Shown: piece by piece, positions 42,041-61,590 of the stretch
Layout: every line of letters starts with the position of its first letter
Position numbering within the stretch: the first letter of the stretch is position 1
Source: Escherichia coli
GTDB taxonomy: Bacteria; Pseudomonadota; Gammaproteobacteria; Enterobacterales; Enterobacteriaceae
NCBI RefSeq assembly: GCF_003790525.1
Contig: NZ_CP033635.1
Length of the DNA stretch: 64,000 nt
Reading direction: 5' to 3' (one strand)
The notes under the pieces: generated by a model
Told to the model about the DNA's origin: nothing
The model's database searches: none
What the model saw: the letters and a program-made list of their open reading frames with translations, nothing else
Position numbers and translations under genes: made by a program

Positions 42041-42466
42041 TCACCGGTTCTGGTGCAGAAGTTGCAGTTGGTGCAGGGTACGGATATCCTCCCTGGCCTG
42101 TTCAATACAGGGCAGCAGTGCTGCCGAATCCGTTTTATCCTCATCGTTGTCGAAAATAATTCCGGACCCGCAGTCGATATTGTCCTGCAGCCACGCAATG
42201 AGGATATCCAGCGCTGTTTCAGTGGTTAATGGCATCACGCTCTGTATCACTGTATTGTCTTCCGGCAACTGATGAGAGCTGGCAGAAGTCGCCGGTGTTT
42301 CGGTAGCGTCACGTTCATCCACCACGCGGAGTGAATAACCGTATTCAGCGACCTTGTTAATCAGTTCAGTGAGCTCAACACCATCAATGTCAACGACAAT
42401 TCGCCCTATATTCAGTGCCTGTACGTTAACGCTGTCTGCTTCCAATGTCAGGGCCAGTTTCATCAT
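42041..42466 (-). CDS. island-associated hypothetical protein downstream of cbtA
   Basis: 141-aa acidic ORF whose start overlaps the cbtA stop. Confidence 0.5.
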
Positions 42467-42837
42467 TTCGCCTCCGGATACTTACCCAGGGTAATGTTAT
42501 TTACCGTTCTGTAATTGTCGCGGGTCATCAGGCCGGTCGCCCTGCGAGCCCGGAGGATATCGATGCTGTTTATTAACTGAGAGCGGGTACAGGCGCTGAA
42601 TCCCGGCTGGTCGGTACGTACCAGCGCGTATTTTTCCACGAGAAAGTTCACCGCATCACACAGTGAAATGCCCGCTTCAATATGCTGCTCAATCACACGT
42701 TCATCCGCGAACGGTGTGTCATTCAGCGCGAGGCCGTAGTGCTGGTCCAGTAACCGGGTGAGCAGTGTCTGCCAGATGGTGACGGGAGACGGGCAGCACG
42801 ATGCCTCCCGTACATGCGTGTCGGGTAATGTTTTCAT
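42463..42837 (-). CDS. cbtA: CbtA/YeeV-family toxin (cytoskeleton-binding toxin)
   Basis: 124 aa matching remembered YeeV/CbtA (...[86 protein letters not shown]...). Confidence 0.85.
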
Positions 42838-42926
42838 AATGAAGATTTTCCTGATATGCAGAGATAAAAAATGGGACAGTGGCGTGGTGAAAACACCAGG
42901 CCGGAGCAGAAGATTATTCTGATGAT

Positions 42927-43295
42927 TTACTTTTTCGTTTCGGGCGTCGGATAAACAGCCAGATAAACGTAACCACAGGAGCCGAGGGTGTCGGCTTCAC
43001 AGGTCAGCCCCTTCGCATACAGTGTCACGGTATGCTGATGGCGGGGATTCAGTTCACCGCTGGTGAGCATGAGCTCCAGTTGTTTCATCAGCAGCGGAAA
43101 GGCCTGGTCCGGATGGTACGCATCCGCATCTCTGAACCGGCCTCTGATACCGGCACGGTCGGCAAGGTAATGCAACCGGTTACCCTCCTGCACCAGACGT
43201 GCCCCGAAACAGGGCGTCACGGTGCAGGGCAGTCCCCACCAGAGGCGGTCGTGATTGTCGTCGTGATGCGTTGTCCCGGGGAGTGTGTCTGACAC
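42927..43295 (-). CDS. cbeA: CbeA/YeeU-family antitoxin
   Basis: matches remembered YeeU ([48 protein letters not shown]...); GTG start at 43295 preceded by GAGGA; track ORF extends further upstream. Confidence 0.8.
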
Positions 43296-43344
43296 GATAA
43301 AATCCTCACAGAAAATCGTTGAATGATAGTTTAACTTTGACAGG

Positions 43345-43989
43345 TCAGCCGGTGCGCAGACCGGCTTCGGTGAAGGTGTATTCGTTGATGAGAAGGGCCT
43401 CATCCACAGGGGCATCTGAGGTCAGCCTGTTGTGCTCGTTTTCCAGTTGACGGTACAGCCAGAAGGCCAGGTCGCGCAGGGCTTCGCTGACAGCGGCTTC
43501 CGCATCTGTTGTCATAGTCTGACCAGTCGGACTGTTCCGGGTGACGGTGATATCCATGCTGTACGGATGGCAGTAGCGTCCCCGGCGGTGGATTTCAGCC
43601 TGCAGTTGCCAGAAGTTACGCTTCTGCACCGCCTGCAGGGCATCCGCGATACGATGGAGTTCATGCTCCTGTGGGGCATACTTCCGGATTATCCGGGCTG
43701 TCGCCGGCTGCCAGTGCCAGCGTCCTTCAAAACAGGCTCCGTCCCCCTGGCTGCAGCATCCGCTGAACCAGATGCACGGCTCTTCCATAAACCTGCCGTT
43801 GCTGAGCCGGAAAACGCGCTGGCGGAGGTCAATTCCGAAAATGTCACAGACCGCCCTGAAGTCCTCATACACGTTTTCATACCAGTTGCTGTCAGCATGA
43901 TGCTGACGGTACCCGTCGCGGGCTTTTTCCCGTGCCGGGCAGGAAAGTTCATCCAGCGTATACACTGTGATGGTGATAATTCTGCTCAT
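43345..43989 (-). CDS. hypothetical Cys-rich protein (214 aa) between the DUF987 gene and cbeA
   Basis: long ORF co-directional with the operon; not a gene recalled from K-12 CP4-44/CP4-57 at this position. Confidence 0.45.
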   Translation of the reverse strand: MSRIITITVYTLDELSCPAREKARDGYRQHHADSNWYENVYEDFRAVCDIFGIDLRQRVFRLSNGRFMEEPCIWFSGCCSQGDGACFEGRWHWQPATARIIRKYAPQEHELHRIADALQAVQKRNFWQLQAEIHRRGRYCHPYSMDITVTRNSPTGQTMTTDAEAAVSEALRDLAFWLYRQLENEHNRLTSDAPVDEALLINEYTFTEAGLRTG

Positions 43990-44003
43990 CAGAATGCCCT
44001 GAC

Positions 44004-44225
44004 TCAGTTCAGGGTGACGCTCATCAGCCGGACATACGGGCCAAAACTGTCCTTACGACGTTCTGCAAACACAGCCAGCACACCGGGAATATCCTGCACT
44101 TCACGACCGGTATACGTTTCAGTGCTGCCGTGCCAGCGGTATTTGCCGGTACAGAACGGAAAAAGACGGGATGCAGGATGCTGTTGGTGAATACGCATGG
44201 CTTCACCACGGGTGATGATTTTCAT
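44004..44225 (-). CDS. yeeT: DUF987 protein (YeeT/YpjJ family)
   Basis: 73 aa (MKIITRGEAMRIHQQHPASRLFPFCTGKYRWHGS...) typical of YeeT-like island proteins. Confidence 0.75.
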   Translation of the reverse strand: MKIITRGEAMRIHQQHPASRLFPFCTGKYRWHGSTETYTGREVQDIPGVLAVFAERRKDSFGPYVRLMSVTLN

Positions 44226-44287
44226 AATGGGATACCTCTGAAGACAGAAGATAAAAGTGAAAACAGGTGTGATGTGGTTGTGACGGG

Positions 44288-44764
44288 TTAAAGCAGACCA
44301 TGTTCGGCAAAGGAGAAAACCTGGCTGCCACCGACTATCAGATGGTCCGGCACCCGGATATCCACCAGGGCCAGCGCCTGTACCAGACGTTCCGTAATAA
44401 GGCGGTCTGCCTTACTGGGTGTGACTTCACCGGACGGGTGATTGTGTGCCAGCACCACGGCAGCGGCATTGTGGTACAGGGCGCGTTTAATCACTTCCCG
44501 GGGATGGACTTCCGTGCGGTTGATGGTGCCGGTGAAGAGGGTTTCACCGGCAATCAGCTGATTCTGGTTGTTCAGATACAGCACCCGGAACTCTTCACGC
44601 TCCAGTCCCGCCATGTTCAGAATCAGCCATTCCCGTGCTGCACGGGTGGAGGTGAAGGCCACGCCGGGTTCATGAAGATGGCGGTCCAGGGCTTTCAGGG
44701 CCCGCTGAATGAGGCTGCGCTCTCTGGTTGTCATTTCTCCGGGCAGAAAGGAAATCTGTTGCAT
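44288..44764 (-). CDS. RadC-like JAB-domain protein (YeeS/YkfG/YfjY family)
   Basis: 158 aa with JAMM-like motif HNHPSG...S..D. Confidence 0.8.
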   Translation of the reverse strand: MQQISFLPGEMTTRERSLIQRALKALDRHLHEPGVAFTSTRAAREWLILNMAGLEREEFRVLYLNNQNQLIAGETLFTGTINRTEVHPREVIKRALYHNAAAVVLAHNHPSGEVTPSKADRLITERLVQALALVDIRVPDHLIVGGSQVFSFAEHGLL

Positions 44765-44779
44765 TGTTCCGGCCCCCTT

Positions 44780-45259
44780 TCAGTCAATGATGCGCATAAT
44801 GGCGCTGCATTCCGGATGCTGCAGGGCGTAATCCCGCAGACGGTAATAATGAACCGTCATGGCATAACACTCCGTACGGCAGGCGTGATGACTGTACGTC
44901 ATCAGACAGGCAGCAATGCCGGCGGCTTCCGGGCTCATTTCAGCGCGGTTACCGTTCATGGCATTGAACAGTACCCATGTTTCGTCATCATCATCATCCG
45001 GTTCGGGGGCCATAAATGCCCCGCCGTTGTTCAGGGTGTACAGATTCCAGATACCACCGCAGTAGTCTTCGCACAGACGGTCCATCCAGCCGAAGACACG
45101 GGGCTCCAGGGTCACCCACTGTGGAATGAGGCCAAAATGCTGCGGCCAGAAGCTGATGCGCTGTTCATCAGGGACGAGGCTGGCAACCAACTGAGGCGGA
45201 TTATTCTCTGGTGTTGTAGCTGAATAAATTGTGGGGGTATTCTGAGAAACGGTTTTCAT
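44780..45259 (-). CDS. antirestriction-like protein (YfjX/KlcA/ArdB-type, from memory)
   Basis: 159-aa acidic protein with motifs GGIWNLYTLNNGGAFMAP and YSHHAC seen in CP4-type island antirestriction proteins. Confidence 0.6.
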   Translation of the reverse strand: MKTVSQNTPTIYSATTPENNPPQLVASLVPDEQRISFWPQHFGLIPQWVTLEPRVFGWMDRLCEDYCGGIWNLYTLNNGGAFMAPEPDDDDDETWVLFNAMNGNRAEMSPEAAGIAACLMTYSHHACRTECYAMTVHYYRLRDYALQHPECSAIMRIID

Positions 45260-45340
45260 GAGATAACACCTTAAATAACAAATAAATGTGTGTTTTTCAG
45301 GAACGAAAGCTGAATGATTCCCTCACTCAGGGAAACGGCA

Positions 45341-46159
45341 TCAGCGCATGCTCTCCAGCAGCGTTTCTGCCATCACCCACAATGCGCGGTTGAGTTTTAT
45401 ATCGGTATCAATGCTGTGAATGGCCCGGGTATGGATACGTTTTCCTTTTGCACTGCGACCGGAAATCCCGCCTTTCAGCATATTCTCCTGGATGGTCTGA
45501 TAAGCACTCCACAGGTCCTTACCGTAATCCTCCCGGCGTCGTGGTGTCAGAATGTCGGCGGTGGTGACGGGCTGATGTTCGTCACCATAACGGTAAGTCA
45601 GTGCCGCCTGTGCCAGCGCCTGGCGTGCCGGTGGCGGCAGGACCAGCGACTGCATGGCATCACGCTTCTCCTCTATCCGGTCAAACACGCCCACCACCTC
45701 GTAAGCCCCTTCAATGACTCTGTCCACCACATTTCCCCGGTGCGGAACACGCACTTCCCCCAGAGACTGACCGCAGACGCATCCGTTCTGGCAGACGAAC
45801 CTGAAGTAACCCGGCAGCATCTGGTAGCTGGAGGTACCGTCATGGGAGTTCAGCAGGATGATTTCAGGGACATGTTGTCCGTTTATCTCCCCGTCACGGC
45901 GCAGACGCAGCATGTGTTTGGTATACCCCCGGCGGCCCGGGTCACGTACGCGGGTCTGGCAGGCGAAGAAGGGCTGAAAGCCTTCCCGCTGCAGGCTTTC
46001 CAGCACGGTGATGGTGGGGATGTATGTATAGTTCCGGCTCCGGGAGGTGTGTTTATCTTCCCCGAAAATCCCGGGCACATGGTGCATCAGCTCTTCACGG
46101 GTCAGCGGACGGTCACGGCGTATCTGGTTCGCATAACCAAAACGACTGGCTAATCGCAT
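45341..46159 (-). CDS. DUF932-family protein (YafZ/YfjQ-like)
   Basis: 272-aa ORF co-directional with the island operon; family from memory. Confidence 0.6.
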   Translation of the reverse strand: MRLASRFGYANQIRRDRPLTREELMHHVPGIFGEDKHTSRSRNYTYIPTITVLESLQREGFQPFFACQTRVRDPGRRGYTKHMLRLRRDGEINGQHVPEIILLNSHDGTSSYQMLPGYFRFVCQNGCVCGQSLGEVRVPHRGNVVDRVIEGAYEVVGVFDRIEEKRDAMQSLVLPPPARQALAQAALTYRYGDEHQPVTTADILTPRRREDYGKDLWSAYQTIQENMLKGGISGRSAKGKRIHTRAIHSIDTDIKLNRALWVMAETLLESMR

Positions 46160-46202
46160 ACTTTGCTCCTTATCAGTGGTTAAGACTGAATGACGTAATC
46201 AA

Positions 46203-46239
46203 TGAAAAAGCCGCGTCTCACGGAGAAGACGCGGCCTGA
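46203..46239 (-). terminator. Rho-independent terminator downstream of the GTPase gene
   Basis: gccgcgtct/agacgcggc hairpin followed by a T-run on the minus strand. Confidence 0.6.
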
Positions 46240-46344
46240 TGGATGAAATGAATGAGGGTTTACCGAAGCCCTTCAGCATTGTGGTGACGCAACCGGAAAT
46301 GCGTTTCCTGGTTATCGCCGGGGCCGGTCAAAAAGCGGGGACAT

Positions 46345-47229
46345 TCAGAACAGGCGATCCCACAGTGTGATCAGCAGGCGGATAATGCGATCACGGGCTT
46401 TGCGCAGAAGCTGCAGCATCCAGGCCGGAAAGCTGAACCGGGCAATGGCAGCGTCAAAACTCTGGCCGATGGCGTCACCAAAAGCCTGCTGTGCGTGTTG
46501 CTGATCCTGCGCAGTGCGCTTTTCATTCCGGATATGCGAATAAACCGCGCTGGTTGCCTGTGGTGGCAGGGCGTGGATCATCAGAGACACAAATGCCGGA
46601 AGATTCCAGCCGGCAGGAGCGGCTATGGGGAGTACCGGAAATGATGAAGGGAACAGGGTTGCCACCCGGGCTGTCACCGTCGCCAGTGAGAGTTCCTGCT
46701 GACGGGATGGCGTGCTGCTCTGGTTGTTCCATTCTTCAGCCGGGTGGATGCGATCGGCATGGCTGAGAACAAACAGAAAACGCGAGGGATCGGCACCTTC
46801 ATTCAGTAAAAACTGATGCATGGCGATGTCGGCAGCATACGCACGTTCATCAGCCCGCAGGATCCAGATAATCAGATCCAGTTCGGGCAGTAACTGACTG
46901 TAAAGTGCCCGGTATTCCTGATCATGCTGTGGTGTTTCGCCAGTGCCGGGCAGATCGACCAGCGTCATTCTTCGTTCACCGGGCTGAAAGGTAAGACGAT
47001 GAGCCTGACGGGTGCAGCCGTTCAGCGGATGCGTGGCGCAGACACGGGACTGAAAAATGGCATTGCACAGGCTGCTTTTTCCGGCACCGGATTTACCCAT
47101 AATGCCAATAACGGGTTCGTACTGAATGACGCTGCGAAGATGTTCAAGGATTTTCTGGCGAATTTCTTCAGGAAGAAAGGTCAGATGTGACTTTACGTGT
47201 GCGGAGAGGGAAGAATGGCTGAATGACAT
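46345..47229 (-). CDS. YeeP/YkfA/YfjP-family GTPase
   Basis: 294 aa with P-loop GIMGKSGAGKSS and DLPG switch motif; first gene of the minus-strand CP4-like operon. Confidence 0.8.
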   Translation of the reverse strand: MSFSHSSLSAHVKSHLTFLPEEIRQKILEHLRSVIQYEPVIGIMGKSGAGKSSLCNAIFQSRVCATHPLNGCTRQAHRLTFQPGERRMTLVDLPGTGETPQHDQEYRALYSQLLPELDLIIWILRADERAYAADIAMHQFLLNEGADPSRFLFVLSHADRIHPAEEWNNQSSTPSRQQELSLATVTARVATLFPSSFPVLPIAAPAGWNLPAFVSLMIHALPPQATSAVYSHIRNEKRTAQDQQHAQQAFGDAIGQSFDAAIARFSFPAWMLQLLRKARDRIIRLLITLWDRLF

Positions 47230-47329
47230 ACCGTTATCCTGTTGATTTCACTGAACCGGATCACATTAATCCGGCCTCTCAGTCAGGTAATATGGACGTG
47301 AAAATTTTTCCATTGACGGGAAGAAGAGT

Positions 47330-48553
47330 ATGGCTAAAAACAAAGGTATCTGTCGGAATAAAAAATGCAGCAATCCTGTTTCAGAATTTGATGAGGCAAA
47401 TGCCCTGAGGTTATGTGATGATCATTATCAGTTATGGAAACGAAATAAAGAGAACCGTCGGGTCAGGAATATTTGTCGTATAATCAGTAAATATGACAAA
47501 AGTCTGGACCGGGAGATATTTGACAGAGTAATAGATGCTGCAAGAAATCAAACGGGAAAGAGAATTGTTGAGGACGCAAAAATATTACATCAATTGCGCA
47601 ATTCAAAGCAAGTAAGAAAAAGTCTTCATAATGGAGTACTCCGGTCACGGGAATGGCTCAATACACAGGAGTTACTGAGAAGAAAAAATATATCTGTTAC
47701 AGGTGACTCATTTAAATCTTACATAAAGGATATTGTCAGATTATATTGCTATAAGTTTCTCTACAGCAGAGAATATCTTAATGAAAACGCATACAAAAAA
47801 CAATATCAGAGAGTTATTAACCCCAGAGAATTTAATGTTCCGATACTTCAACTTGAAGTTGCATGGATCAATAATAATTGCCGTTCAAGTGATTCAAGCT
47901 CTGATATTATCATCCTTCCCAGGATGATAAGAAGAATGGTTGTATTTAATGATACGAAGATAAATAAACAATTAGAGGAAATGTTGGGGGGGATAGCACG
48001 AAAAAAAGTCGCAGTAAGGAATAAAGGCGGTCTCTATACCAGAATAAAAAAAGAAAATGATTTTCGTTCTATGGATAGATTTATGGTGGAAATCGAAAAT
48101 ATCATAAGGCCTGAAATATTTCCGACATCAATTTACCCGCCTTTTTCACTTTCATTTATCGAGAGAGAATTGCCACTACTGAATCTGGCGCACTCACAGT
48201 ACAAAAGAGCAATAAGTAAAAAAGTGGCGAATTCAATTTTTTATACTTTGCGAAAAACTCACGTGGCATTATGGCTGCATCTTGAAATGTTTGCTCTTGT
48301 GGCATTCATCAAACTGTATACAGGAAAAGGGTTTGAATTCATGAAAAACATGTGTGTATTTATAGATTATGATAAAGGGATAATAAAATCCACGCATGAA
48401 GAACTGCTGAGTGAAATTAAGTGTAACATTCAGTTGAATTTAAAGGTGAATCCTGATAATTTTCCTGAATTAATAGAAGTATACAATTCATGCTTTAGTA
48501 AAAATATATTGTTGTATGATGTTCAGGATGATGGTTTTAAATGGTGTTTATGA
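47330..48553 (+). CDS. orphan AT-rich hypothetical protein (407 aa), Lys/Arg-rich, N-terminal C-x4-C...C-x2-H motif
   Basis: single long ORF in a visibly AT-rich tract, divergent from the GTPase gene; no recognised family. Confidence 0.6.
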   Translation: MAKNKGICRNKKCSNPVSEFDEANALRLCDDHYQLWKRNKENRRVRNICRIISKYDKSLDREIFDRVIDAARNQTGKRIVEDAKILHQLRNSKQVRKSLHNGVLRSREWLNTQELLRRKNISVTGDSFKSYIKDIVRLYCYKFLYSREYLNENAYKKQYQRVINPREFNVPILQLEVAWINNNCRSSDSSSDIIILPRMIRRMVVFNDTKINKQLEEMLGGIARKKVAVRNKGGLYTRIKKENDFRSMDRFMVEIENIIRPEIFPTSIYPPFSLSFIERELPLLNLAHSQYKRAISKKVANSIFYTLRKTHVALWLHLEMFALVAFIKLYTGKGFEFMKNMCVFIDYDKGIIKSTHEELLSEIKCNIQLNLKVNPDNFPELIEVYNSCFSKNILLYDVQDDGFKWCL

Positions 48554-50092
48554 TGTGAAAATATTAAATTTATATTACATTTTAATTATCGACAAAAAAC
48601 ACATAAAGAAATCTAAAGGGAATGAGCGTCAAATGAGCTGATATAGCGCCAGTTTGGTATGGTCATGTGATTTGATGATTAAAGCTTACGAATAATAACA
48701 CTCCTCTGTGAGCCATATAAATGAGCATGCCATAATCGTCAGTTCAGAGATAAAACTGACTGAATGATCTTATGTTATAGTAAGCAGTGTTTACCGGATA
48801 CGATGACTTATCTCTCTCACATCATATGGATTCACTTTCATGGGGTAAAGCGATGGGACTACAGACGCTGATTATGATGGTTTGCTGTAAAGTTAGCACA
48901 AGTTTTTGCTGTACAGAATACGGAGTAAGAAAAATAATTCCAGAGTAAATCTGCTCTGCTTTTGAACAGAAAAGATTCATGCTTACCGTGAAAAACTGAA
49001 ACCAACATTCAGTCTGCATGGATGTCTTAAGATGTTGAGAATGTCGGATATGGTATTATATACACCTTTTCCATTAGGTCCTTTTATGTTTTCATTAAGT
49101 CGTTTTGTATGTATTCCTCCAGTGATTCATTAGTGCCTGTTTACGCATTTACACACTTTCCCATTAATCTCCTTTAAATGTGTTTCATTACGCATTGCTG
49201 TACACATTTTTGAACTGATACACATCCAAGTTAGTAAACCTGTCAGTTCTGATTTTACGTTAACTAAATCAGTTTAATGCTGCTGTAAAACAATCCTTCC
49301 TGTTTAAGCAATCAATCTGCTATTCGATTTTACTGATGTGACGTTTAACCTTTCCTGAGCTTTGGTTGTTTGTGGTTTTTGGTTTGTGTTTCGACGTTAA
49401 GCTGAGAAAAGTATCTTTACGCTAAATCAACCCGAACTTTCCTGAGGTGATCTGACGTTCTTTTCGATGTGCTTACGACGATTCTGTTAAACGACTTTCT
49501 GGATGTTTTGATAACAATCAGATTGAGGCATTAACGATTCCTGACGTTTTGCTTTTTCATGTAAGGTCATTGTTTTCGTCATGATGTGGTTTTTCTTCTT
49601 GCATTGCGAAAGTGTGATGATTGGTTTTGGTTTTTTGATTCAGATGAGATTTACGTTATCGATGGTTAATCGTTTTTATGGTGCGTAGTGAAACGTAACA
49701 TTTTCGGGATGAGAAAATCGATTCTGATGGTGATGGGGATGATCGTGTTACGGCGTTATCTGTAAACAGGTTTTAAACGTGTCATTCGCATTCGTGATTG
49801 AGTTGTGTGATTAAGCTGTAGGTTTTGGCGTTGTTGTTGATTTGCATTGCCAGGAAGCGTTCTGGTTGCGTTTCTGGTGTTTTGTTCGAATGTTCTGTGG
49901 ATCCTTTTCCCTTCAGGCTTTTCTCGTCGTCCATGTCGTTTTTAAATCCATTCATGCTGTTGTTGCGTGTTTTGCTGCTGTGTGCAGGATTATCTTTTCG
50001 TTCCGGGATGGTTTGTTCCGTTTCAATCACTCTTAATCAGAGAGTTGTAGCATTGCTTAATGGCATGATGCCGTAAAGTTTTACCGCGGTGA

Positions 50093-50128
50093 TTAATGAT
50101 GTGAAGTCAATCCAAATCAACGGAGATC
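50093..50128 (+). promoter_or_regulatory. conserved leader motif upstream of yagK-like gene 1
   Basis: ttaatgatgtgaagtcaatccaaatcaacggagatc includes GGAG 8 nt before ATG 50136; repeated at 51034-51065. Confidence 0.4.
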
Positions 50129-50135
50129 TCTCATC

Positions 50136-50867
50136 ATGAATCAACCAATACACAATGCTTACTGGTTATCCCGTTTTGACAGCCTTCTCGACAGTGCCCT
50201 GTCGCAGCACCGTGCCGTCTCGTTAATCCGGGTGGATTTACGTTTCCCTGAGTATATGCCTGTCACCATCATGGATCCCGATCCGGATTCAGCGGTGATT
50301 TCTCGTTTTTTCGAATCCCTGAAAGCCAAAATCCAGGCTTACCAGCGGAAAAAACGACGTGCCAACAAGCGTGTGCGTGCAACCACTCTGCGTTATTTCT
50401 GGTGTCGGGAGTTTGGCAAGGAAAAAGGCAGGAAACATTATCACGTGATATTGCTGCTCAACAAAGATACCTGGTGCTCGCCAGGGGATTTCAGCGAACC
50501 ATCTTCGCTGGCGACGATGATCCTGGAGGCATGGTGCAGCGCCCTGCATCTTGAGGCCTGGCAAGGCGATGGCCTGGTCCATTTTTCCAGGTGGACGCCT
50601 TCCCGTAAACCAGCATCGTCTGATGCTCGCCCTTCTTCCGATGACACGCCTTTGTCGGGTGGATGTTCTGATACCAGGAAGGCTTCAGAAAAAAAGCCGG
50701 GTGAAGCCGCTGTTCTCTGGATCAAGCGTGGTGATGTGGAAGCGCTGCAGAAAGCCCGGAACAGAGCCAGTTATCTCGTGAAATATGAGACGAAGCAGCA
50801 TGACGGTTCCGGGCAACGTAATTATGGTTGCAGTCGTGGGCCGGGGCGTCTGCTGGATGGCAGGTGA
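50136..50867 (+). CDS. YagK/YfjJ-family (inovirus Gp2-like) island protein
   Basis: 243-aa ORF with family-typical basic stretch and VDLRFP-like block; family from memory. Confidence 0.65.
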   Translation: MNQPIHNAYWLSRFDSLLDSALSQHRAVSLIRVDLRFPEYMPVTIMDPDPDSAVISRFFESLKAKIQAYQRKKRRANKRVRATTLRYFWCREFGKEKGRKHYHVILLLNKDTWCSPGDFSEPSSLATMILEAWCSALHLEAWQGDGLVHFSRWTPSRKPASSDARPSSDDTPLSGGCSDTRKASEKKPGEAAVLWIKRGDVEALQKARNRASYLVKYETKQHDGSGQRNYGCSRGPGRLLDGR

Positions 50868-51033
50868 GCCCTGTAAAACGACATCCGGTGCCTGAGCTTA
50901 TGCTACAGGACGTTGGCTGACGCCCTTAGCTCGTTTTCTGAAAAAGTCGTCCTGAAGTCATGCAACGGTATTTTTCTCTGCTTTCGCTCCTGGAAACACT
51001 CCGTCGGTAAAACCTTACTGTCCTGCTTAATGA

Positions 51034-51065
51034 TGTGAACCGAAGTCAACGGAGATCATTCATTC
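51034..51065 (+). promoter_or_regulatory. second copy of the conserved leader motif
   Basis: cttaatgatgtgaaccgaagtcaacggagatc; the equivalent start position reads CTG followed by an early stop. Confidence 0.4.
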
Positions 51066-51211
51066 TGAACCTGCATCCGGTGTTCTTTCCCTTATCTTCC
51101 CGTTCTGCTTCGGTTCTTCACTTATTCCATCAATCTCATTCGTAAACCATAACACGTCAGCTCATTCACGGGCAGGACGCGTTGTGGGCTGCGCATAACG
51201 GAGCATATCTT

Positions 51212-51784
51212 ATGAATGCTATCCCTTATTTCGACTATAGCCTGGCCCCCTTCTGGCCATCTTATCAGAGCAAAGTTATCGGTGTCCTTGAGCGTGCGCT
51301 GCGTGAGCAGTCCGGCTCCAGGATACGGCGGATCCTGCTTCGTCTGCCGTGTGAATATGACAGTACCTTCAGCAGCAGAAAGACCTGGTTTGGTATGGAT
51401 TTTATCGAAACCGTCAGTGCGCTGATGAATGCAACCCCCGGACGCGACCTCTGCTGGCTCCTGACACGTCATCCTGAAAAACCGGAATACCACGTGGTGC
51501 TGTGCGTCAGACAGGAATATTTCGACGGCCCTGAGCTGGACCGGTTGATTCTGGATGCCTGGAGCAACGTACTGGGCTTCGCGGCACCGGGTGAAGCAGC
51601 ACCGTACCAGAAACAGATAACCCGGGATGTGGTGCTGGACAGTTGTTCACCGGACTGCGAAGAGAGACTCAAAGAGCTGATCTGGGCGTTCAGTGATTTC
51701 GCCCGCGATCGTCGTGGTGTGCGCGATCCGGAAGCCCGTTACCTCGCCGGTAATCCCTGGTATCCCGTAGCAGGCCAGCTCTGA
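51212..51784 (+). CDS. YagK/YfjJ-family paralog, N-terminally degenerate (possible pseudogene)
   Basis: ORF 51182-51784 shares family features (ILLRLPCEYD, HYHVVL); ancestral start region is disrupted. Confidence 0.5.
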   Translation: MNAIPYFDYSLAPFWPSYQSKVIGVLERALREQSGSRIRRILLRLPCEYDSTFSSRKTWFGMDFIETVSALMNATPGRDLCWLLTRHPEKPEYHVVLCVRQEYFDGPELDRLILDAWSNVLGFAAPGEAAPYQKQITRDVVLDSCSPDCEERLKELIWAFSDFARDRRGVRDPEARYLAGNPWYPVAGQL

Positions 51785-51852
51785 AAGCTCAGCTCAGCAG
51801 ATTCTCCCGCATTTGCCCAACATTCATAAATCTCACAGAGGACATTCTGACC

Positions 51853-52089
51853 ATGTTGACCTCAATGACAGGTCACGACAGCGTATTGCTGCGTGCCGAC
51901 GATCCCCTGATCGACATGAACTACATCACCAGCTTCACTGGTATGACCGACAAATGGTTTTACAAGCTGATCAGTGAAGGCCATTTCCCTAAACCCATCA
52001 AACTGGGGCGCAGCAGCCGCTGGTACAAAAGTGAAGTGGAGCAGTGGATGCAGCAACGAATCGAGGCATCACGAGGGGCAGCAGCATGA
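51853..52089 (+). CDS. alpA: AlpA-family phage/island transcriptional regulator
   Basis: small HTH protein with FPKPIKLGRSSRWYKSEVEQWM motif; alternative start ATG 51916. Confidence 0.7.
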   Translation: MLTSMTGHDSVLLRADDPLIDMNYITSFTGMTDKWFYKLISEGHFPKPIKLGRSSRWYKSEVEQWMQQRIEASRGAAA

Positions 52090-52289
52090 AACGTGTTGTA
52101 ATGCCGGTACGCTGGCAATGTGCAAAATACCAGCGTTGGTATTGTGGAAATCAGCCCTGTCCCTGGTGCTGGCGACCTGCTGCCCCCGTCTGTCATTCCT
52201 CGTTCTTCGCTGTAACAGGCATCGTACCGGTCTCGGCGTGCTTTCCTGCGTACCGACACCGGTTCAGCAACATTCAAGGGGATCAAATC

Positions 52290-52838
52290 GTGCAAATAAC
52301 CGAAACCGTACTTTCAGAGCCGGTGGAAATCCGGCGTTTTATTCAGCAGGCGGTGGATCACTGGCCGCGTCTGCTGGCCGTCCACTTCACACTCCATTCG
52401 GCAGAAGGAAACATCAACGGACAACAGATTCATGCATTCTGTACTTCCTTTTACCGACAGGTGCACGAGCGTATTACTGAACGTAATCACACGGCCAGTC
52501 CAGCACCACCGGTGGTATTACGCTGGTTGCGGGAACAACATGGAGGAGCAACAATGCGATGCCTGTTGCTGCTCAGCCAGACGAGCATTTGCCATCCACG
52601 GGTCAGTGCCACGGTTGATGAAGAATGTTCGCAACGGGTGGATTTATTGCAACAGACATGGCGGGTGATAAGTGCTGACGGACAATGCCGGGTGGAAAGG
52701 TGTTTTCAGGCTGCCCGGGGTGATACATCCGGCCAGTATATTGCGTTAAAAACAGTTGCATTGTCTCTGGGGTTACCGGTTGTGACCGGTATTACCCATC
52801 GCCCGGTACAGCGCTGTACATTGATTACAGCTCAGTGA
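52290..52838 (+). CDS. hypothetical island protein (possible third YagK/YfjJ-like paralog)
   Basis: ORF 52044-52838; plausible GTG start at 52290 after AAGGGGA; the Cys-rich segment upstream looks non-coding. Confidence 0.4.
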   Translation: MQITETVLSEPVEIRRFIQQAVDHWPRLLAVHFTLHSAEGNINGQQIHAFCTSFYRQVHERITERNHTASPAPPVVLRWLREQHGGATMRCLLLLSQTSICHPRVSATVDEECSQRVDLLQQTWRVISADGQCRVERCFQAARGDTSGQYIALKTVALSLGLPVVTGITHRPVQRCTLITAQ

Positions 52839-52855
52839 ACAGCGCTGTTGTGCAG

Positions 52856-53200
52856 TCAACGAGGTTTTCTGTCTTTTCGTCGGTCATTCAGCATCATTAA
52901 ACGGGTCTCTGCCTCTTTCTGTTCCTGTGGTGTCACTTCCCCGCACGGCTGACCGTTCAGGTTGTAACGGGCGCCACCTGCTATTAACGCACGGTAATAG
53001 CGCGGAGACTGCACATAAGACGCCACTGCTGCATGTAATGTACCAGCGCCAAACGCCAGTTCTCGGATGGCGATATCCTGTATCAGGTCGTCAGGTATCC
53101 CCACTTTAAGTGGTTTTGTTTTTTCCCGGTTGAATGACTCAGGCCAGAGTTCCACAAGACGAATAATGCGCTTACGGTTTTTGCTCTGGCGTTTTGTCAT
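52856..53200 (-). CDS. ProQ/FinO-domain RNA chaperone-like protein
   Basis: 114 aa resembling the ProQ N-terminal FinO domain (KPLKVGI.DDL, SPRYYRAL, NLNGQPCGEVT). Confidence 0.7.
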   Translation of the reverse strand: MTKRQSKNRKRIIRLVELWPESFNREKTKPLKVGIPDDLIQDIAIRELAFGAGTLHAAVASYVQSPRYYRALIAGGARYNLNGQPCGEVTPQEQKEAETRLMMLNDRRKDRKPR

Positions 53201-53838
53201 GTCGCCACGGTGTTTTATCAGCAGGTTTCTGTTTATCGTTCAACTGTGGTATCTGGTCACCGGCCTTCATTTTGTATGCTGTGTCCGTTTTATCCTGCAG
53301 CGGCGTTGCCGGTGATTTACTGAAAATACCCTGCGGTTTACGGTTAATGGTCAGCGTTACCATCAGTATTGTTACCTCGTGCTGTCAATGGAAGTGGTAC
53401 CTCATCCGGTATCTGAAAATGTTTTCCGGTGGATGGCACAGCGAATGTCATGTAAGACATGCTGTTGCCGGTATTGTTCAGTACTGTGAGTTGTGAGCGT
53501 ATTCGTTATCAGACAGAGGGGCAGGGAACAAACGTCAGAGGTTAAGGATATCCGGGAACAAATGGCGTAAACGGACATCTCAGTGCCTGAGAAACAGTAC
53601 AGGTCAGGCCATCATGGCCTGCAAACAGAGCCCTGGCGACCCCGTGGCCGAAAACGAAACAATAACCCGCGCGCAGTGCGAGGAATCCGGATGTGAAGCA
53701 ATCAGCAGGTAATATTAATGGCAGGACCAGCAGGTTCTTTAAACAAACGAACATGCTGTAATTGATATTTTGCTTATTGTATTTTCTTTTTAGTTATTAA
53801 ATTAATTTATTTACGAAAAATTTTCTGCAGATACAGGA

Positions 53839-53867
53839 TGGGAATTCAGGGTGTCATCACGCCTTAT
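53839..53867. other. perfect palindrome gggtgtcatca-N7-tgatgacaccc downstream of the LacI-family gene
   Basis: 11-bp inverted repeat; terminator or operator candidate. Confidence 0.3.
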
Positions 53868-53958
53868 GATGACACCCTTCCCCTGGTTGTGGAAAACCGA
53901 AGGATATATCAGGTTCAGCAACAAAATCAGTGAGCTGAAAGATACCAGTCCCCCAGCT

Positions 53959-54978
53959 TCAGCAGCTTTCACGTAAACATAAACAGGGCTCAATGAATAT
54001 CTGATTGCTCCAGTTACCTTCTTTAATTCGTTCCAGCAAAACATTTCCTGCTTCCAGACCAATTTTCCTGTGAGGAACGGCCATTGTTGTTAATGATGGT
54101 TGGCAAACTTTGCTGACGTCACTGTCACCAAATCCTACTACGGCGAGCTCGTCTGGAACTTTGATCCGTCTTCGTTGACATTCATAGAGAACACCGCAGG
54201 CTAACTCATCTGACACACATACCAGGGCATCCAGTTCCGGCCATGCGAGCAAAAATTCCGGTAGTTGTGATGCTCCGGTGGAAAAAACAGGTGGCAGAGC
54301 AGCGTTAATAACACGGTTGGGAGACATATGATGGCGTAACATAGCTTTATACCATCCCTGTAAATGCTGCTGAAAGATCCACTGTTCCTGGTTAGCGCAT
54401 AGCAAACCGATATTCTGATAACCACGTTGTACCAGCATATCCGTCAGCTCGAACATTGCTGCAACATTATCAATACCAATGTTGATATCTATCGGATCAG
54501 TACGAATGGCACCGATTTCTATAACAGGAATCGAGGCATTTTTGAGCAAGTGACGCACGGTACTATTATGATCAACACTAAGCAAAATTGCTGCAGCGAT
54601 ATTAGAAGCCAGCAGGGTTTCCAGCAGTTTTTCTTCTTGTTCCAGACGATGGCGTGACTCAGCCAGGATTATTTGATACCCCGCTGGTTGTAGCACATGT
54701 TGCAGCCCGGCAAACATTTCCGTGCATCCCGCTTCAGCCAGGTTTGGCACGACCATTGCGATCGTGTGTGAAGATGCCGATGCCAGTGCGCTTGCAGTGA
54801 GGTTGGGCATATACCCTAATTCATTAACTGCGGCTTCAATCTTCTCCCTCAATTTATCTGAAACTTGTTCGGGAGTGCGTAACGCTCTGGATACAGTCAT
54901 TGTGCCAACTCCCGCGAGTTGCGCGACATCAGCAATAGTGACTTTACCTGTACTACGACGTTTTCGGGTTATTGCCAT
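53959..54978 (-). CDS. LacI/GalR-family transcriptional regulator
   Basis: 339 aa with N-terminal HTH (TIADVAQLAGVGTMTVSRAL) and periplasmic-binding-fold core; divergent from the PTS operon. Confidence 0.8.
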   Translation of the reverse strand: MAITRKRRSTGKVTIADVAQLAGVGTMTVSRALRTPEQVSDKLREKIEAAVNELGYMPNLTASALASASSHTIAMVVPNLAEAGCTEMFAGLQHVLQPAGYQIILAESRHRLEQEEKLLETLLASNIAAAILLSVDHNSTVRHLLKNASIPVIEIGAIRTDPIDINIGIDNVAAMFELTDMLVQRGYQNIGLLCANQEQWIFQQHLQGWYKAMLRHHMSPNRVINAALPPVFSTGASQLPEFLLAWPELDALVCVSDELACGVLYECQRRRIKVPDELAVVGFGDSDVSKVCQPSLTTMAVPHRKIGLEAGNVLLERIKEGNWSNQIFIEPCLCLRESC

Positions 54979-55229
54979 ACAAAATCCTGCTCAGCGACTA
55001 CATATGGAGATCTTTTATTACTTATCATCAACGGCTTCCTGCACTGCCAGTAGCAGAGTATACCTCTTAATATCTGCCATAAGTCTGGATTTAATCAGTG
55101 AAATCTATTTTGATAGCGCTATCACAAATTCGAACAATACCTCCTGATAGCGCTATCTTTGTGATATTGATCGCAGATATACCGTCGTTACTTGAATACA
55201 TTCTGGTCATATAAATAAGAAATTAGGGG

Positions 55230-55679
55230 GTGGGAGTGCTTAATATCTGGCTTTCTGATTCAACAATCGCATTACGAAAGAATGCCGCAACCTGGCAGCA
55301 GGCATTAGATATCTGTGCCAGACCGTTACTGGATGCAGAGATAATTACGACGGATTATCTCAGTGCGATAAAGACACAACATGAAAAACTGGGGCCTTAT
55401 TATGTCCTGGCACCCGGGCTGGCCATGCCGCATGCCCGACCAGAAGAAGGGGCAAAAGGATTAGGTTTATCATTATTAAAACTTGAAGAAGGTGTCAGTT
55501 TTCATACAGAGGAATTTGATCCTGTAGATGTTATCATTTTACTTGCCGCACCAGACAAACACAGTCATATCGAAATGATATCTGCACTGGCTGAGTTATT
55601 CTCCAGCGAAAAAGATTTACATGAATTGCATCAGGCTCGCAATGTGGAGGAAATAAAAAAGATAATTTCACGGTTCTGA
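55230..55679 (+). CDS. PTS EIIA component, ascorbate (UlaC/SgaA) type
   Basis: 149 aa with APGLAMPHARPEEG active-site region resembling UlaC. Confidence 0.8.
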   Translation: MGVLNIWLSDSTIALRKNAATWQQALDICARPLLDAEIITTDYLSAIKTQHEKLGPYYVLAPGLAMPHARPEEGAKGLGLSLLKLEEGVSFHTEEFDPVDVIILLAAPDKHSHIEMISALAELFSSEKDLHELHQARNVEEIKKIISRF

Positions 55680-55757
55680 TTACATTATAAATTCAGTCTT
55701 TTCACAACATTGCGCCGTTGCGTGATGGGACTTCTTCAACTTAAAATGGTGAATATA

Positions 55758-56030
55758 ATGAAAATTATGGCTATTTGTGGCTCAGGGCTTGGTAGTAGTT
55801 TTATGGTCGAAATGAATATTAAAAAAGTTCTGAAAAAAATGGATATAGAGGCGGAAGTGGAACATTCCGATCTCTCATCAGCAACGCCAGGGGCTGCCGA
55901 TTTATTTGTGATGGCCAAAGATATTGCTGCCAGTGCCAGCGTACCGGAAAGTCAGTTGGTGGTTATCAACAACATCATTGATATTAATGAACTCGAAACG
56001 CAACTGCGTAACTGGTTAGCAAAACAATAA
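55758..56030 (+). CDS. PTS EIIB component, ascorbate (UlaB) type
   Basis: 90 aa from MKIMAICGSGLGSSFM...; Cys-containing phosphorylation loop. Confidence 0.8.
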   Translation: MKIMAICGSGLGSSFMVEMNIKKVLKKMDIEAEVEHSDLSSATPGAADLFVMAKDIAASASVPESQLVVINNIIDINELETQLRNWLAKQ

Positions 56031-56052
56031 CCTTAATTGAAGCGAGGTGGAT

Positions 56053-57441
56053 ATGTTTATCCTTGAAACGCTGAATTTTGTTGTTGATATACTTAAAGTG
56101 CCCGCGATACTGGTCGGCTTGATTGCCTTAATTGGTCTGGTTGCCCAGAAAAAATCTTTTTCAGATGTTGTTAAAGGTACAATTAAAACTATTCTCGGCT
56201 TTATTGTACTGGGCGGTGGTGCCACTGTTTTGGTTGGTTCGTTAAATCCTCTTGGGAGTATGTTTGAACATGCCTTTAATATTCAGGGCATCATTCCGAA
56301 TAATGAGGCTATTGTTTCTATTGCGCTGGAAAAATATGGCGCATCGACGGCCCTTATTATGGCATTTGGTATGGTGGCGAATATTATTGTTGCCCGCTTT
56401 ACCCGCCTTAAATATATCTTCCTGACCGGACACCACACATTTTACATGGCCTGCATGATTGGTGTGATTCTGACAGTGGCTGGTTTTGAAGGTATATCAC
56501 TGGTCTTTACCGGTTCTCTTATTCTGGGACTTGTGATGGCATTTTTCCCGGCATTAGCACAACGCTATATGAAGCGTATTACGGGGAATGATGACATTGC
56601 TTTTGGTCACTTTGGCACTCTGGGATATGTACTTTCTGGCTGGATTGGCAGCGTGTGCGGTAAAGGTTCCCGCTCCACCGAAGAGATGAATTTGCCCAAA
56701 AATCTGAGCTTCCTGCGCGACAGTTCCATCTCTATTTCTCTTACGATGATGGTGATTTATCTGATCATGGCGATCAGTGCTGGTCGTGAGTTCGTTGAAA
56801 GCCAGTTCAGTGGTGGTCAAAACTACCTTGTCTACGCCATCATAATGGCCATCACCTTCGCTGCTGGTGTATTTATTATTCTGCAAGGCGTGCGTTTAAT
56901 CCTTGCTGAAATAGTTCCGGCATTTACCGGGTTTTCAGAAAAGCTGGTGCCGAATGCCCGTCCGGCCCTCGATTGCCCGGTTGTGTATCCGTATGCGCCA
57001 AACGCAGTGTTAGTTGGTTTCTTGTTTAGCTTTTTTGGCGGTCTGGTAGGGCTATTTTTGTTGGGACAGATGAAACTGGTGTTGATTCTTCCGGGTGTCG
57101 TTCCTCACTTTTTTACCGGGGCGGCTGCTGGCGTATTTGGTAACGCTACGGGGGGACGTCGTGGCGCAATGATTGGTGCTTTTGCGAATGGCTTATTGAT
57201 TACCTTCCTGCCAGTACTGTTATTGCCGGTTCTTGGGGCGATAGGCTTTGCTAATACGACCTTTTCCGATGCAGATTTTGGTGCTGTCGGCATCGTCCTC
57301 GGAAACCTGGCACGTTATCTCTCACCTTTTGCCATCACCGGACTTGTAGTAGCGCTATTTGTGCTGCTGGTTGCCTGGAACATTTTCGCCAGTAACAAAA
57401 TCGCTGCCAAAGCGCAGAAGAAGAGCGGAGCCAAATCATGA
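56053..57441 (+). CDS. PTS EIIC permease, ascorbate (UlaA/SgaT) family
   Basis: 463-aa polytopic membrane protein; ATG 56053 after GAGGTGG. Confidence 0.85.
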   Translation: MFILETLNFVVDILKVPAILVGLIALIGLVAQKKSFSDVVKGTIKTILGFIVLGGGATVLVGSLNPLGSMFEHAFNIQGIIPNNEAIVSIALEKYGASTALIMAFGMVANIIVARFTRLKYIFLTGHHTFYMACMIGVILTVAGFEGISLVFTGSLILGLVMAFFPALAQRYMKRITGNDDIAFGHFGTLGYVLSGWIGSVCGKGSRSTEEMNLPKNLSFLRDSSISISLTMMVIYLIMAISAGREFVESQFSGGQNYLVYAIIMAITFAAGVFIILQGVRLILAEIVPAFTGFSEKLVPNARPALDCPVVYPYAPNAVLVGFLFSFFGGLVGLFLLGQMKLVLILPGVVPHFFTGAAAGVFGNATGGRRGAMIGAFANGLLITFLPVLLLPVLGAIGFANTTFSDADFGAVGIVLGNLARYLSPFAITGLVVALFVLLVAWNIFASNKIAAKAQKKSGAKS

Positions 57442-58268
57442 ATGTTAAAGAATTGACTCAATTTGCACGGGATATACGTATCCAGACGCTTAAATCATTA
57501 ACTCATCTCGGCTTCGGTCATTATGGTGGCAGCATGTCGGTTGTGGAAACGCTGGCAGTGCTTTATGGCGCTGTAATGAAAATTGATCCTGCTGCTCCCG
57601 ACTGGCCTGAGCGTGACTATTTTATCCTGTCCAAAGGACATGCCGGACCTGCTCTCTACAGTACTCTGGCGCTGAAAGGCTACTTTCCACTGGAAGAATT
57701 AAGCACCTTAAATCAGAACGGAACCCGCTTACCAAGTCATCCGGATCGGCTAAAAACGTGTGGTGTTGATAGCACCACAGGATCGCTGGGGCAGGGGATA
57801 TCCATTGCCGGAGGGATGGCGCTGTCGCATAAACTGGCGGGGCGCAAGAATCGGGTTTTTTGTATTGTCGGCGATGGCGAACTTAATGAAGGCCAATGTT
57901 GGGAAGCTTTCCAGTTTATCGCGCATCATCGTTTGAATAACCTCACTGTGTTTGTGGACTGGAACAAACAGCAGCTTGATGGTCAACTGGATGAAATTAT
58001 TAATCCATTTGATTTGGAAGGAAAATTCCGGGCTTTCGGTTTTGATGTCGTGACAGTGAAGGGCGATGATATTGAGGGCTTGTTGAATGTAGTTAAACCT
58101 GTCCTGCCAGCTGAGGCCAGACCGAGAGTGGTCATTCTCGATAGCATTAAAGGGCAGGGGGTGCCGTGTCTCGAGCAACTCAGTAATTCTCATCACTTAC
58201 GCCTCACAGAAGAGATGAAGGGGACGCTAAACGAAACAATTCGCCAACTGGAGGATATGCATGATTAA
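57438..58268 (+). CDS. transketolase, N-terminal (ThDP-binding) subunit
   Basis: 276 aa with GDGE...NEGQ ThDP motif; start overlaps the EIIC stop. Confidence 0.85.
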   Translation: MNVKELTQFARDIRIQTLKSLTHLGFGHYGGSMSVVETLAVLYGAVMKIDPAAPDWPERDYFILSKGHAGPALYSTLALKGYFPLEELSTLNQNGTRLPSHPDRLKTCGVDSTTGSLGQGISIAGGMALSHKLAGRKNRVFCIVGDGELNEGQCWEAFQFIAHHRLNNLTVFVDWNKQQLDGQLDEIINPFDLEGKFRAFGFDVVTVKGDDIEGLLNVVKPVLPAEARPRVVILDSIKGQGVPCLEQLSNSHHLRLTEEMKGTLNETIRQLEDMHD

Positions 58269-59214: not shown

Positions 59215-59304
59215 TTCATGGAGTTTGTTTACCATTCTGTTTTTCTTAAAAGTGAGTGTCTGTGCGGTCACTAAACTCGGTAATAAAGCAGTTCATTGCA
59301 GGAT

Positions 59305-60657: not shown

Positions 60658-60748
60658 AAGAACCGACCGCCGTATGTAGCCATTAAGCCAGTATTGGTAA
60701 CGTAGGTGCCCACCTTTTCAATGTACTGCGCCCCAAATCTTGGACATC

Positions 60749-61590
60749 CTATGAAAAATGTTTAAGTCGATATTGAACCGGACTCATACCATCGAGTTTC
60801 TCTTTAATGCGATGGTGATTGTAGTATTCAATGTAATCAATTATATCTTGCTTTAGATGATGTAACTTATTGTATTTATTTAGATAGTAACATTCTGATT
60901 TTAATGTACTAAAAAAGCTTTCCATTGCTGCATTATCTAAGCAGTTACCACGTCGGGACATGCTTTGTGTTATGCCATTATCACTCAACCAACGTTGCCA
61001 ACGAGGCATCTGATATTGCCACCCCTGATCACTATGCAACAAGGGCTTATCGTCTTTATTGAGTTGTTCTACCGCATCTAATAGCATGCTCTTTACCATT
61101 GATGCTAATGGGCGCTCAGTAAGGTTATATGAGACTATTTCTCCATTATACAGGTCCATGATTGGTGATAAATAGAGCTTCCTGCCATCGACCTTAAACT
61201 CAGTGACATCTGTTACCCACTTTTGATTTGGGCGGTCAGCATAAAATTGTCTCTTCAGTAAATTATTACAAGTTCGCCCCTGTTCTCCACGATAGGCACG
61301 GTACTTCTTGCGCCTGATAAGTGAGCTGATACCCAGTTCCTTCATTAACTTTCTGATGGTTTTACCATTAAGTAAAATGCCTCGTTACGGCAGGCAAGTC
61401 TGATGCGTCGATAACCATAACGCCCTTTATGCTGATGGTATATTCTCAATATTACTTGTTTAACAAGTTGATATGGATCTGGCGCATTAAGGCGTTTCAC
61501 GTGATAGTAAAATGTACTACGTGGCAAATCAGCGATAACCAGTAATTGTGATAATGGATGACATTGCCTTAACTCATTAATAATGATTAC
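60749..61590 (-). pseudogene. IS3-family transposase orfB (DDE integrase core) carrying an extra frameshift
   Basis: N-terminal part (stop at 61345) is in the -1 frame relative to orfA; the remainder continues in a third frame from an overlapping TAATG at 61343-61347. Confidence 0.7.

Follow-up and report, generated by a model that had tools for sequence, protein, structure and literature searches.

A putatively nuclease-dead relative of HNH endonucleases in a hypervariable slot of CP4/P4-like islands of Escherichia coli

Islands of the CP4/P4-like type are among the commonest mobile elements of the E. coli group and carry virulence, defence and toxin-antitoxin genes. The K-12 islands CP4-57, CP4-6 and CP4-44 hold a YfjP-type GTPase gene, DUF932, antirestriction and RadC genes, a CbtA/CbeA pair, a Gp2-like gene and AlpA. 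The same set is found in an island within a 64,000-nucleotide stretch of E. coli DNA (NCBI RefSeq assembly GCF_003790525.1, contig NZ_CP033635.1), hereafter the window, in which an open reading frame (ORF) encoding 407 amino acids, here called X, is transcribed divergently from the GTPase gene. Unlike this island, CP4-57 and CP4-6 carry no member of the superfamily to which X belongs, and in CP4-57 the genes rnlAB and abpAB lie upstream of the GTPase gene in place of X. The original prediction, which was made from the DNA letters of the window, regarded X as a candidate defence or toxin gene in the cargo position where related islands carry adhesins such as Ag43. In CP4-44, Ag43 sits downstream of the GTPase gene and not in the X slot. 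In Pseudomonas, islands that are integrated at tmRNA genes and carry IntY and AlpA have a likely core of RadC, inovirus Gp2-like and helix-turn-helix (HTH) proteins, IntY and AlpA, and their defence genes are cargo (PMC12595487).

We regard X as a new form of HNH/zinc-finger protein, catalytically degenerate, in a dedicated hypervariable slot of a widespread island family. Our preferred reading, to which we assign a probability of roughly 0.4, is that X is a zinc-finger DNA-binding protein, derived from an HNH nuclease but nuclease-dead, and serves as a regulator or specificity factor particular to its island. We infer from its sequence and its position that the protein would bind zinc and DNA and have such a regulatory or specificity role.

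Probable HNH ancestry and protein features of X

The ancestry of X is suggested by a sister clade of proteins (P0034 and P0038-P0046, among them P0043 of Klebsiella aerogenes) that are 21-25% identical to it. Profile alignment of the two clades with hhalign gives a probability of 99.9% and an E-value of 5e-34 over 367 aligned columns. The core of the sister clade is the invariant motif H-x-Y-P-x3-G-G-x-N-x3-N-x4-P-x2-I-N-R, which follows a conserved L-[ED], and a predicted beta-beta-alpha unit of X (Table 1) aligns to it. In X, the residues at the catalytic positions are W179, D192 and R201, which replace the His, Asn and Asn of HNH nucleases. Throughout the X clade, the catalytic His is replaced by W, F, Y or K, the Asn of the second strand by an invariant Asp, and the Asn of the helix by Arg. 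The equivalent residues of the sister clade (the His, and N164 and N173 in P0034 numbering) are invariant.

The named matches of the sister motif are HNH nucleases only, and three libraries agree in this, with each match being weak to moderate. In the PDB, the motif retrieves McrA (E = 0.24) and three Cas8f-HNH fusions (E = 0.24-1.1 over all four), aligned on the catalytic motif. In NCBIfam it matches Cas9d (E = 4e-4, three sequences) and IscB (E = 6e-4), in both cases at the HNH region, and in PHROGs it matches families named 'HNH endonuclease' or 'endonuclease VII' (E = 0.006-0.05), plus a few unnamed families. The corresponding segment of X itself matches no named family in NCBIfam or PHROGs, X has no HNH match in Pfam either, and fold searches with X retrieved no HNH structure. 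A search with the superfamily profile, meant to link X to an annotated HNH family, returned only additional hypothetical proteins. Because the homology between X and the sister clade is solid, common descent with HNH nucleases is likely, though not membership of X among them as an active enzyme. We conclude that an HNH nuclease was very probably the ancestor of X and that X, given the substituted residues, would be unable to use the canonical HNH catalytic mechanism.

The second conserved element is the arrangement C8-x4-C13-x15-C29-x2-H32 near the N terminus, which had been noted in the original prediction as a possible zinc ribbon. In an alignment of 16 sequences with identities as low as 21%, these four residues are kept, with fixed spacing, in 90% or more, so X has the four Cys/His ligands expected of a zinc-finger or zinc-ribbon DNA-binding module. 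The motif has no profile match to any named zinc-finger family in Pfam or PHROGs. Among the weak matches of the zinc-finger segments in PHROGs, a single family has a named function, HNH endonuclease (E = 0.047). P0018, a protein of 465 amino acids from loci L011 and L012, has two copies of the motif, and in the sister clade (P0034-P0046) it is followed by a second, different motif, C-x2-C...C-x3-H. The start codon of X is backed by the conservation of its N terminus, in which M1, G6, C8 and C13 are invariant among eight homologues.

The remainder of the protein has features of its own. About 10 motifs outside the HNH-like unit, including SREWxNTQEL, SREYL, LPLFxLA, LExFAL and YNSxFS, are kept down to about 30% identity, which indicates that X has retained some other function. 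The protein is basic, as first described, with an isoelectric point of 9.6 and 72 Lys and Arg residues against 47 Asp and Glu residues; the basic charge spans residues 1-330, and only the last 77 or so residues are acidic. An AlphaFold2 model built from the 16-sequence alignment is fairly confident and mostly helical (predicted local distance difference test score 79.7, predicted template modelling score 0.69), and its one beta-beta-alpha unit spans residues 175-218. The structure prediction and fold search that had been proposed for X matched no solved fold in the PDB and, in AFDB50, found only members of the family and more distant Enterobacterales proteins. Approximately 300 of the 407 residues thus form a helical architecture without a known counterpart. 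The most hydrophobic segment of the protein is VALWLHLEMFALVAFIKLY (residues 312-330, window positions 48263-48319), with a Kyte-Doolittle value of 1.68 over 19 residues. E319, in the middle of this segment, is invariant in the 16-sequence family alignment. The segment may be a membrane helix, and the model places it as a buried helix with high confidence.

That X matches no recognized family was borne out by every library searched. There is no significant match to X in Pfam, NCBIfam, PADLOC or the sequences and profiles of the PDB, and the one match in PHROGs (E = 0.043) is to a family whose function is unknown. Pfam found nothing significant in sets of 16 and of nine superfamily members. A match to a characterized non-defence family, which would have spoken against the original prediction, was likewise absent from these libraries. 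A profile search found no kinship to YfjH, YfjI, YfjJ, YfjM, YfjW or any other CP4-57 or CP4-6 protein of K-12, and literature searches on the backbone genes of these islands, on degenerate HNH proteins and on the accessions of the family proteins found nothing specific to the gene. X is not an orphan, as had been stated, because it belongs to a superfamily whose members are all from Enterobacterales wherever the source names an organism. The X family is small: clustering of 1.84 billion proteins at 50% leaves it 26 representatives. Full-length homologues with 27-37% identity occur in Citrobacter, in Klebsiella michiganensis and in several further assemblies.

The names attached to superfamily members differ. 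All copies of X seen in E. coli are annotated as 'hypothetical protein'. Three AFDB entries (A0AAW5Z627, A0AAW5Z6I9 and A0AAU7N7V1), two of them from E. coli, are automatically named 'HNH endonuclease', a name that would fit only the sister clade. The K. michiganensis protein P0016 (AFDB A0AAX3CP38) is named 'Reverse transcriptase' in UniRef. No Pfam RVT domain was found in the 16 members scanned, and this name looks like an annotation artefact.

A hypervariable slot in the island backbone

Among 5426 complete E. coli genomes, X is present in 974. Frame disruption in other strains, which had been named as a sign against a functional gene, is not seen: 967 of the 974 copies are present at 80% coverage or more, and those in the rows sampled are intact. 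The copies fall into two allele classes, one with at least 99% nucleotide identity (35 genomes) and one with about 91% (933 genomes). Between these classes, the ratio of nonsynonymous to synonymous substitution rates (dN/dS) is 0.27, compared with 0.22 for the neighbouring GTPase gene, and the ORF is 91% identical whereas the noncoding DNA directly downstream (1.1 kb) is 68% identical. X is therefore a real gene under purifying selection. It also evolves about twice as fast as the GTPase even in an orthologous lineage, with amino acid identities to Citrobacter of 34% for X and 68% for the GTPase.

The slot that holds X differs sharply among E. coli islands. A probe across the junction (46630-47630) detects a GTPase gene of about 90% identity in 1885 E. 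coli genomes, and in 970 of these the match extends into X. For the others, homology in the sampled rows of partial coverage ends at probe position 675, which is window position 47304, 25 nucleotides before the start of X, and this break is consistent with the count of about 900 genomes. Homology resumes at 48931 in one island (L021) or at 49254 in another (L023), which delimits a cassette of approximately 1.6 kb consisting of the gene and about 380 bp downstream. The cassette is allele specific and is swapped en bloc between islands (Table 1).

In the three islands without X that were examined (L021, L022 and L023), none has an empty slot. Instead, the slot holds a 'hypothetical protein' of 376 or 316 amino acids that is a distant homologue of X, with E-values of 3e-28 and 1e-9, respectively, against the family hidden Markov model. 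Compared with the window, the slot gene has an amino acid identity of 17-20%, whereas the GTPase reaches 87-88%, Gp2 90% and DUF932 96-100%. The 376-residue allele occurs in 463 of the 5426 genomes and the 316-residue type in up to 741 (379 full-length), and these sets and that of X may overlap. Thus, a large share of complete E. coli genomes have X or a distant allele of it at this fixed island position. E. coli N50 (NZ_CM165889.1) has an X-type allele at 4457353-4458576 and a 316-residue allele at 50793-51743 in different islands, and this single anecdote is consistent with co-resident islands bearing different alleles. In all islands examined by these sequence comparisons, the slot is hypervariable yet held by one superfamily.

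Position is conserved across genera as well. Homologues with 27-37% identity occur at the same place, divergent from a GTPase or WYL operon, with a spacer of about 95-105 bp at those loci where the GTPase gene adjoins them directly. One lineage instead has, on the divergent side, the WYL regulator gene that is normally found behind the GTPase gene. The neighbour genes of X homologues carry the Pfam domain MMR_HSR1. Downstream of the homologues lie AlpA and YagK/YfjJ-type (inovirus Gp2-like) genes, and the gap from X to the next called gene (AlpA or Gp2-like) varies between about 0.3 and 1.6 kb. In the window, the two tandem Gp2/YagK-YfjJ-like ORFs precede the AlpA-like gene, whereas in Citrobacter and Klebsiella the order is reversed, with AlpA first. 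The loci of the sister clade have comparable surroundings: one gene follows int and two small genes (L008); another follows int, AlpA, DUF3987 and ParM/StbB and precedes type I restriction-modification cargo (L017); a third follows DUF3987 (L018); and a fourth lies between an AlpA-like HTH gene and the GTPase gene, all on one strand (L020). These contexts tie the whole superfamily to an integrase/AlpA/GTPase backbone.

The original prediction placed X in a variable cargo position. The slot does differ between strains, but its fillers are homologues of one another, and unrelated cargo is found beyond the Gp2 gene, where type I restriction-modification genes (L003), pseudouridine catabolism genes (L006) or IS100 with SLATT/SMODS genes (L007) occur. 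Absence of the gene, or its replacement by something unrelated, would mark cargo among related islands; the same superfamily was present in every island examined. On these comparisons, X is a backbone gene of CP4/P4-like Enterobacterales islands and not passenger cargo. The gene lies, as was noted, in an AT-rich tract: its G+C content (GC) is 0.341 compared with 0.550 for the adjoining GTPase gene, and GC is 0.32-0.37 across 47250-49750 compared with 0.52-0.60 at 45500-47000. This composition had been taken to point to recent horizontal acquisition. However, every member of the X clade, in all genera sampled, has a GC of 0.32-0.37 beside a GTPase or WYL neighbour at 0.49-0.59, so low GC is an old, maintained property and not the mark of recent arrival.

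The spacer between the divergent GTPase and X genes may act as a promoter or operator, as judged from its sequence. It includes the palindrome CCGGAT-N7-ATCCGG (47256-47274) and a -10-like GTAATAT (47287-47293) that is invariant in seven loci across genera. Most of the seven loci have an inverted repeat at the same place with other stems, such as ATCCTGGC/GCCAGGAT in Citrobacter or GCCGG/CCGGC in others. These repeats were judged by eye from the seven-locus alignment, in which one locus (L003) is ambiguous, and they could form an operator or an RNA or DNA hairpin. A promoter and terminator scan found seven promoter-like sites compared with 11.6 in shuffled sequences, so the promoter scan is uninformative.

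Downstream of the cassette is an AT-rich stretch of 1.2 kb that has no ORF longer than 82 codons and belongs to the conserved island backbone, with 82-91% identity between islands whose X alleles differ. Its plus strand is strongly T-skewed, with an AT skew of -0.24 to -0.40 at 49000-50000. Rfam gave no match over 40000-54000 at E-values up to 0.1. In another island (L006) a 176-residue protein is annotated at this place, and the stretch has no similarity that would make it a decayed copy of that protein. An origin, a transfer site and an unannotated RNA are possibilities for its role.

Table 1. Positions of gene X, its predicted elements and neighbouring features in the window
Feature	Position	Strand	Basis
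X, 407-amino-acid ORF, uncharacterized member of an Enterobacterales-island superfamily	47330-48553	+	ATG-started ORF call; homologues
C8-x4-C13-x15-C29-x2-H32 codons, putative zinc finger	47351-47425	+	Alignment of 16 sequences
Predicted beta-beta-alpha unit aligned to the sister HNH motif	47846-47983 (residues 173-218)	+	AlphaFold2; hhalign
Allele-specific cassette, swapped en bloc between E. coli islands, flanks about 88-94% identical	47305-48930		Homology breaks
Divergent GTPase/X intergenic region, 100 bp	47230-47329		Sequence; seven-locus alignment
AT-rich stretch, conserved island backbone	48931-50135		Island comparison
YfjP/YeeP-type GTPase, 294 amino acids, first gene of leftward operon	46345-47229	-	ORF call; AR_0085 annotation
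Inovirus Gp2-family protein, rightward backbone	50136-50867	+	ORF call; AR_0085 annotation
Second Gp2-like ORF, rightward backbone	51182-51784 (AR_0085: from 51209)	+	ORF call
AlpA-like HTH, rightward backbone	51853-52089	+	ORF call

The genes to the left and right of X are named after the annotation of a near-identical island in strain AR_0085. After the GTPase gene, the leftward operon comprises DUF932, antirestriction and RadC genes, and CbtA-type toxin-antitoxin genes and DUF4942 lie further left. To the left of the island (35997-41765) are nlpA, yicL and a SetC-like sugar efflux gene, surroundings that we take to be the selC neighbourhood, with a SicA-like type III chaperone gene further left. 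ARAGORN found no tRNA in the whole window, and no integrase is encoded by the long ORFs scanned on either side of the island. The island looks like an immobilized remnant. The same left junction, with a rhuM fragment, is present in strain SCPM-O-B-9427 (L023). To the right (53959-62087) are a LacI/GntR-type regulator, ascorbate-type IIA and IIC components of a phosphotransferase system and a split transketolase, along with an IS256-family transposase and IS3-family fragments. These genes form an accessory metabolic module of their own, with insertion sequences at its borders.

Possible functions of X

Under our preferred reading, the ancestor of X would have been an HNH endonuclease that carried a Cys/His zinc finger at its N terminus, and the X clade would have exchanged the catalytic His and two Asn residues for those now seen as W179, D192 and R201. 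Because the catalytic residues were lost and the rest of the protein is under purifying selection, X is most likely a DNA-binding protein that does not cut by the HNH mechanism. It sits at the divergent junction between two core gene sets, the GTPase-DUF932-antirestriction-RadC-toxin/antitoxin operon and the AlpA/Gp2-like genes, and could control the expression, excision or replication of its own island. The junction position and the extreme divergence of alleles within nearly identical flanks suggest a regulator or specificity factor. The regulatory part leans on an analogy with immunity repressors and replication initiators, both of which vary sharply among related elements that have to live together in one cell.

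Several observations weigh against this reading. The link to HNH proteins depends on the register of an alignment and on a short motif whose E-values are marginal to moderate. The 316-residue E. coli allele has no Cys/His motif; together with the duplication in P0018 and the second motif of the sister clade, this indicates that the number of zinc fingers varies within the superfamily. The palindrome and GTAATAT sit on conserved GTPase-side DNA outside the allele-specific cassette. Indeed, positions 47230-47304 are about 88% conserved between islands with different X alleles and do not co-vary with them, so an allele-specific operator, if there is one, is not there. The idea that X is a replication initiator acting on iterons in the AT-rich gap was also considered, and no iterons or meaningful repeats were found near X. 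The reading does not account for the borderline hydrophobic helix at residues 312-330. Finally, extreme divergence within conserved flanks is equally expected of a defence gene in an arms race.

A wider proposal, of which we are rather doubtful, is that the X superfamily represents a new class of mobile-element specificity determinant, in which an inactivated HNH domain and a zinc finger are swapped as a single-gene cassette. In one version, X may set the pairing between an island and its signals and so let related islands coexist, as in immunity or incompatibility. In the other, the hypervariable protein may act as a phage sensor and set off the adjacent GTPase and toxin-antitoxin operon as its defence response.

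The divergence of alleles leads to the foremost rival, that X protects against phages, as the sensor or the effector of a defence or abortive-infection mechanism, and that its allelic diversity results from an arms race with them. We consider this doubtful, though it has the deeply divergent alleles inside conserved flanks in its favour. Defence genes are also carried as cargo nearby, such as type I restriction-modification (L003 and L017), GmrSD/AAA_15 (L014) and SLATT/SMODS (L007), and the abpAB and rnlAB genes of K-12 CP4-57 lie in the region upstream of the GTPase gene yfjP. The nuclease ancestry of X, its AT-rich composition and possible silencing, and its one borderline hydrophobic helix would fit as well. 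However, the PADLOC check that had been proposed for X gave no match to a defence model: PADLOC-DB v2 returned zero families for X at E-values up to 1, and among nine other superfamily members eight had none and one had a spurious DpdJ match (E = 0.031). The HNH catalytic residues are gone in the X clade, and there is no conserved partner gene. Moreover, the slot is held by one superfamily whose position is kept across genera, whereas defence hotspots hold unrelated systems.

The sharp edges of the cassette raise a different alternative, namely that X is, or once was, a homing-endonuclease gene standing on its own, a selfish HNH cassette that invaded an intergenic site of the island and persists there by hitch-hiking, without serving island or host. 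Such a gene would be expected as a discrete single-gene unit of about 1.6 kb within conserved flanks and with a composition unlike that of its neighbours. Free-standing phage HNH endonucleases likewise carry zinc-finger modules, so the HNH ancestry and zinc-finger motif of X would match, and homing cycles include a phase of degeneration, with which the lost catalytic residues agree. This explanation is unlikely given that purifying selection has persisted long after catalytic loss, as is apparent from the dN/dS value of 0.27, the roughly 10 conserved motifs and the 967 intact copies among 974. It is also at odds with the occupied slots of the three islands examined and with the conservation of position across genera.

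Because X is paired divergently with the antirestriction/RadC/DUF932 operon, it might instead be an establishment or anti-defence factor that is expressed on entry of the island into a new cell and acts together with the products of that operon, for example by binding incoming or host DNA. This gene set resembles plasmid leading regions, and rapid diversification fits a role in counter-defence. However, X has no similarity to known anti-defence proteins in Pfam, PHROGs or the PDB and is transcribed separately, in the opposite direction; we regard this role as improbable. Although X is a basic, nuclease-derived protein and these islands hold several toxin-antitoxin pairs, it is highly improbable that X is a stand-alone toxin or half of such a pair, because there is no conserved small ORF adjoining it across loci, the catalytic residues are lost and 407 amino acids is large for a toxin.

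Should our preferred reading of X as a nuclease-dead, HNH-derived regulator or specificity factor be true, the gene would clearly open island regulation, coexistence or phage sensing to experiment, and it would add a further case of a homing-type nuclease recruited to a noncatalytic role.

X compared with HNH nucleases and immunity repressors

The sister clade of X resembles beta-beta-alpha-metal (HNH) endonucleases that bear Cys/His zinc fingers at the N terminus (such as E. coli McrA, the HNH domains of Cas9d and IscB, and the phage HNH and endonuclease VII families PHROG 1035, 1271 and 8660) in sharing the elements E-x-x-H-x-x-P-x3-G-G-x-N-x3-N...N in the correct order. X is homologous to the sister clade over its full length and has a predicted beta-beta-alpha unit at the same place, but it differs from the endonucleases in lacking the catalytic His and both Asn residues and in matching no HNH profile.

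In function, the proposed role of X has its nearest likeness in the lambda-type cI immunity regions and in Stl of SaPIs, which are the immunity or master repressors of phages and their satellites. X has no HTH and resembles these repressors in neither sequence nor fold, and its shared spacer does not co-vary with the allele. Like them, however, X is divergent from the main operon, varies strongly between alleles amid conserved flanks and has a predicted DNA-binding module.

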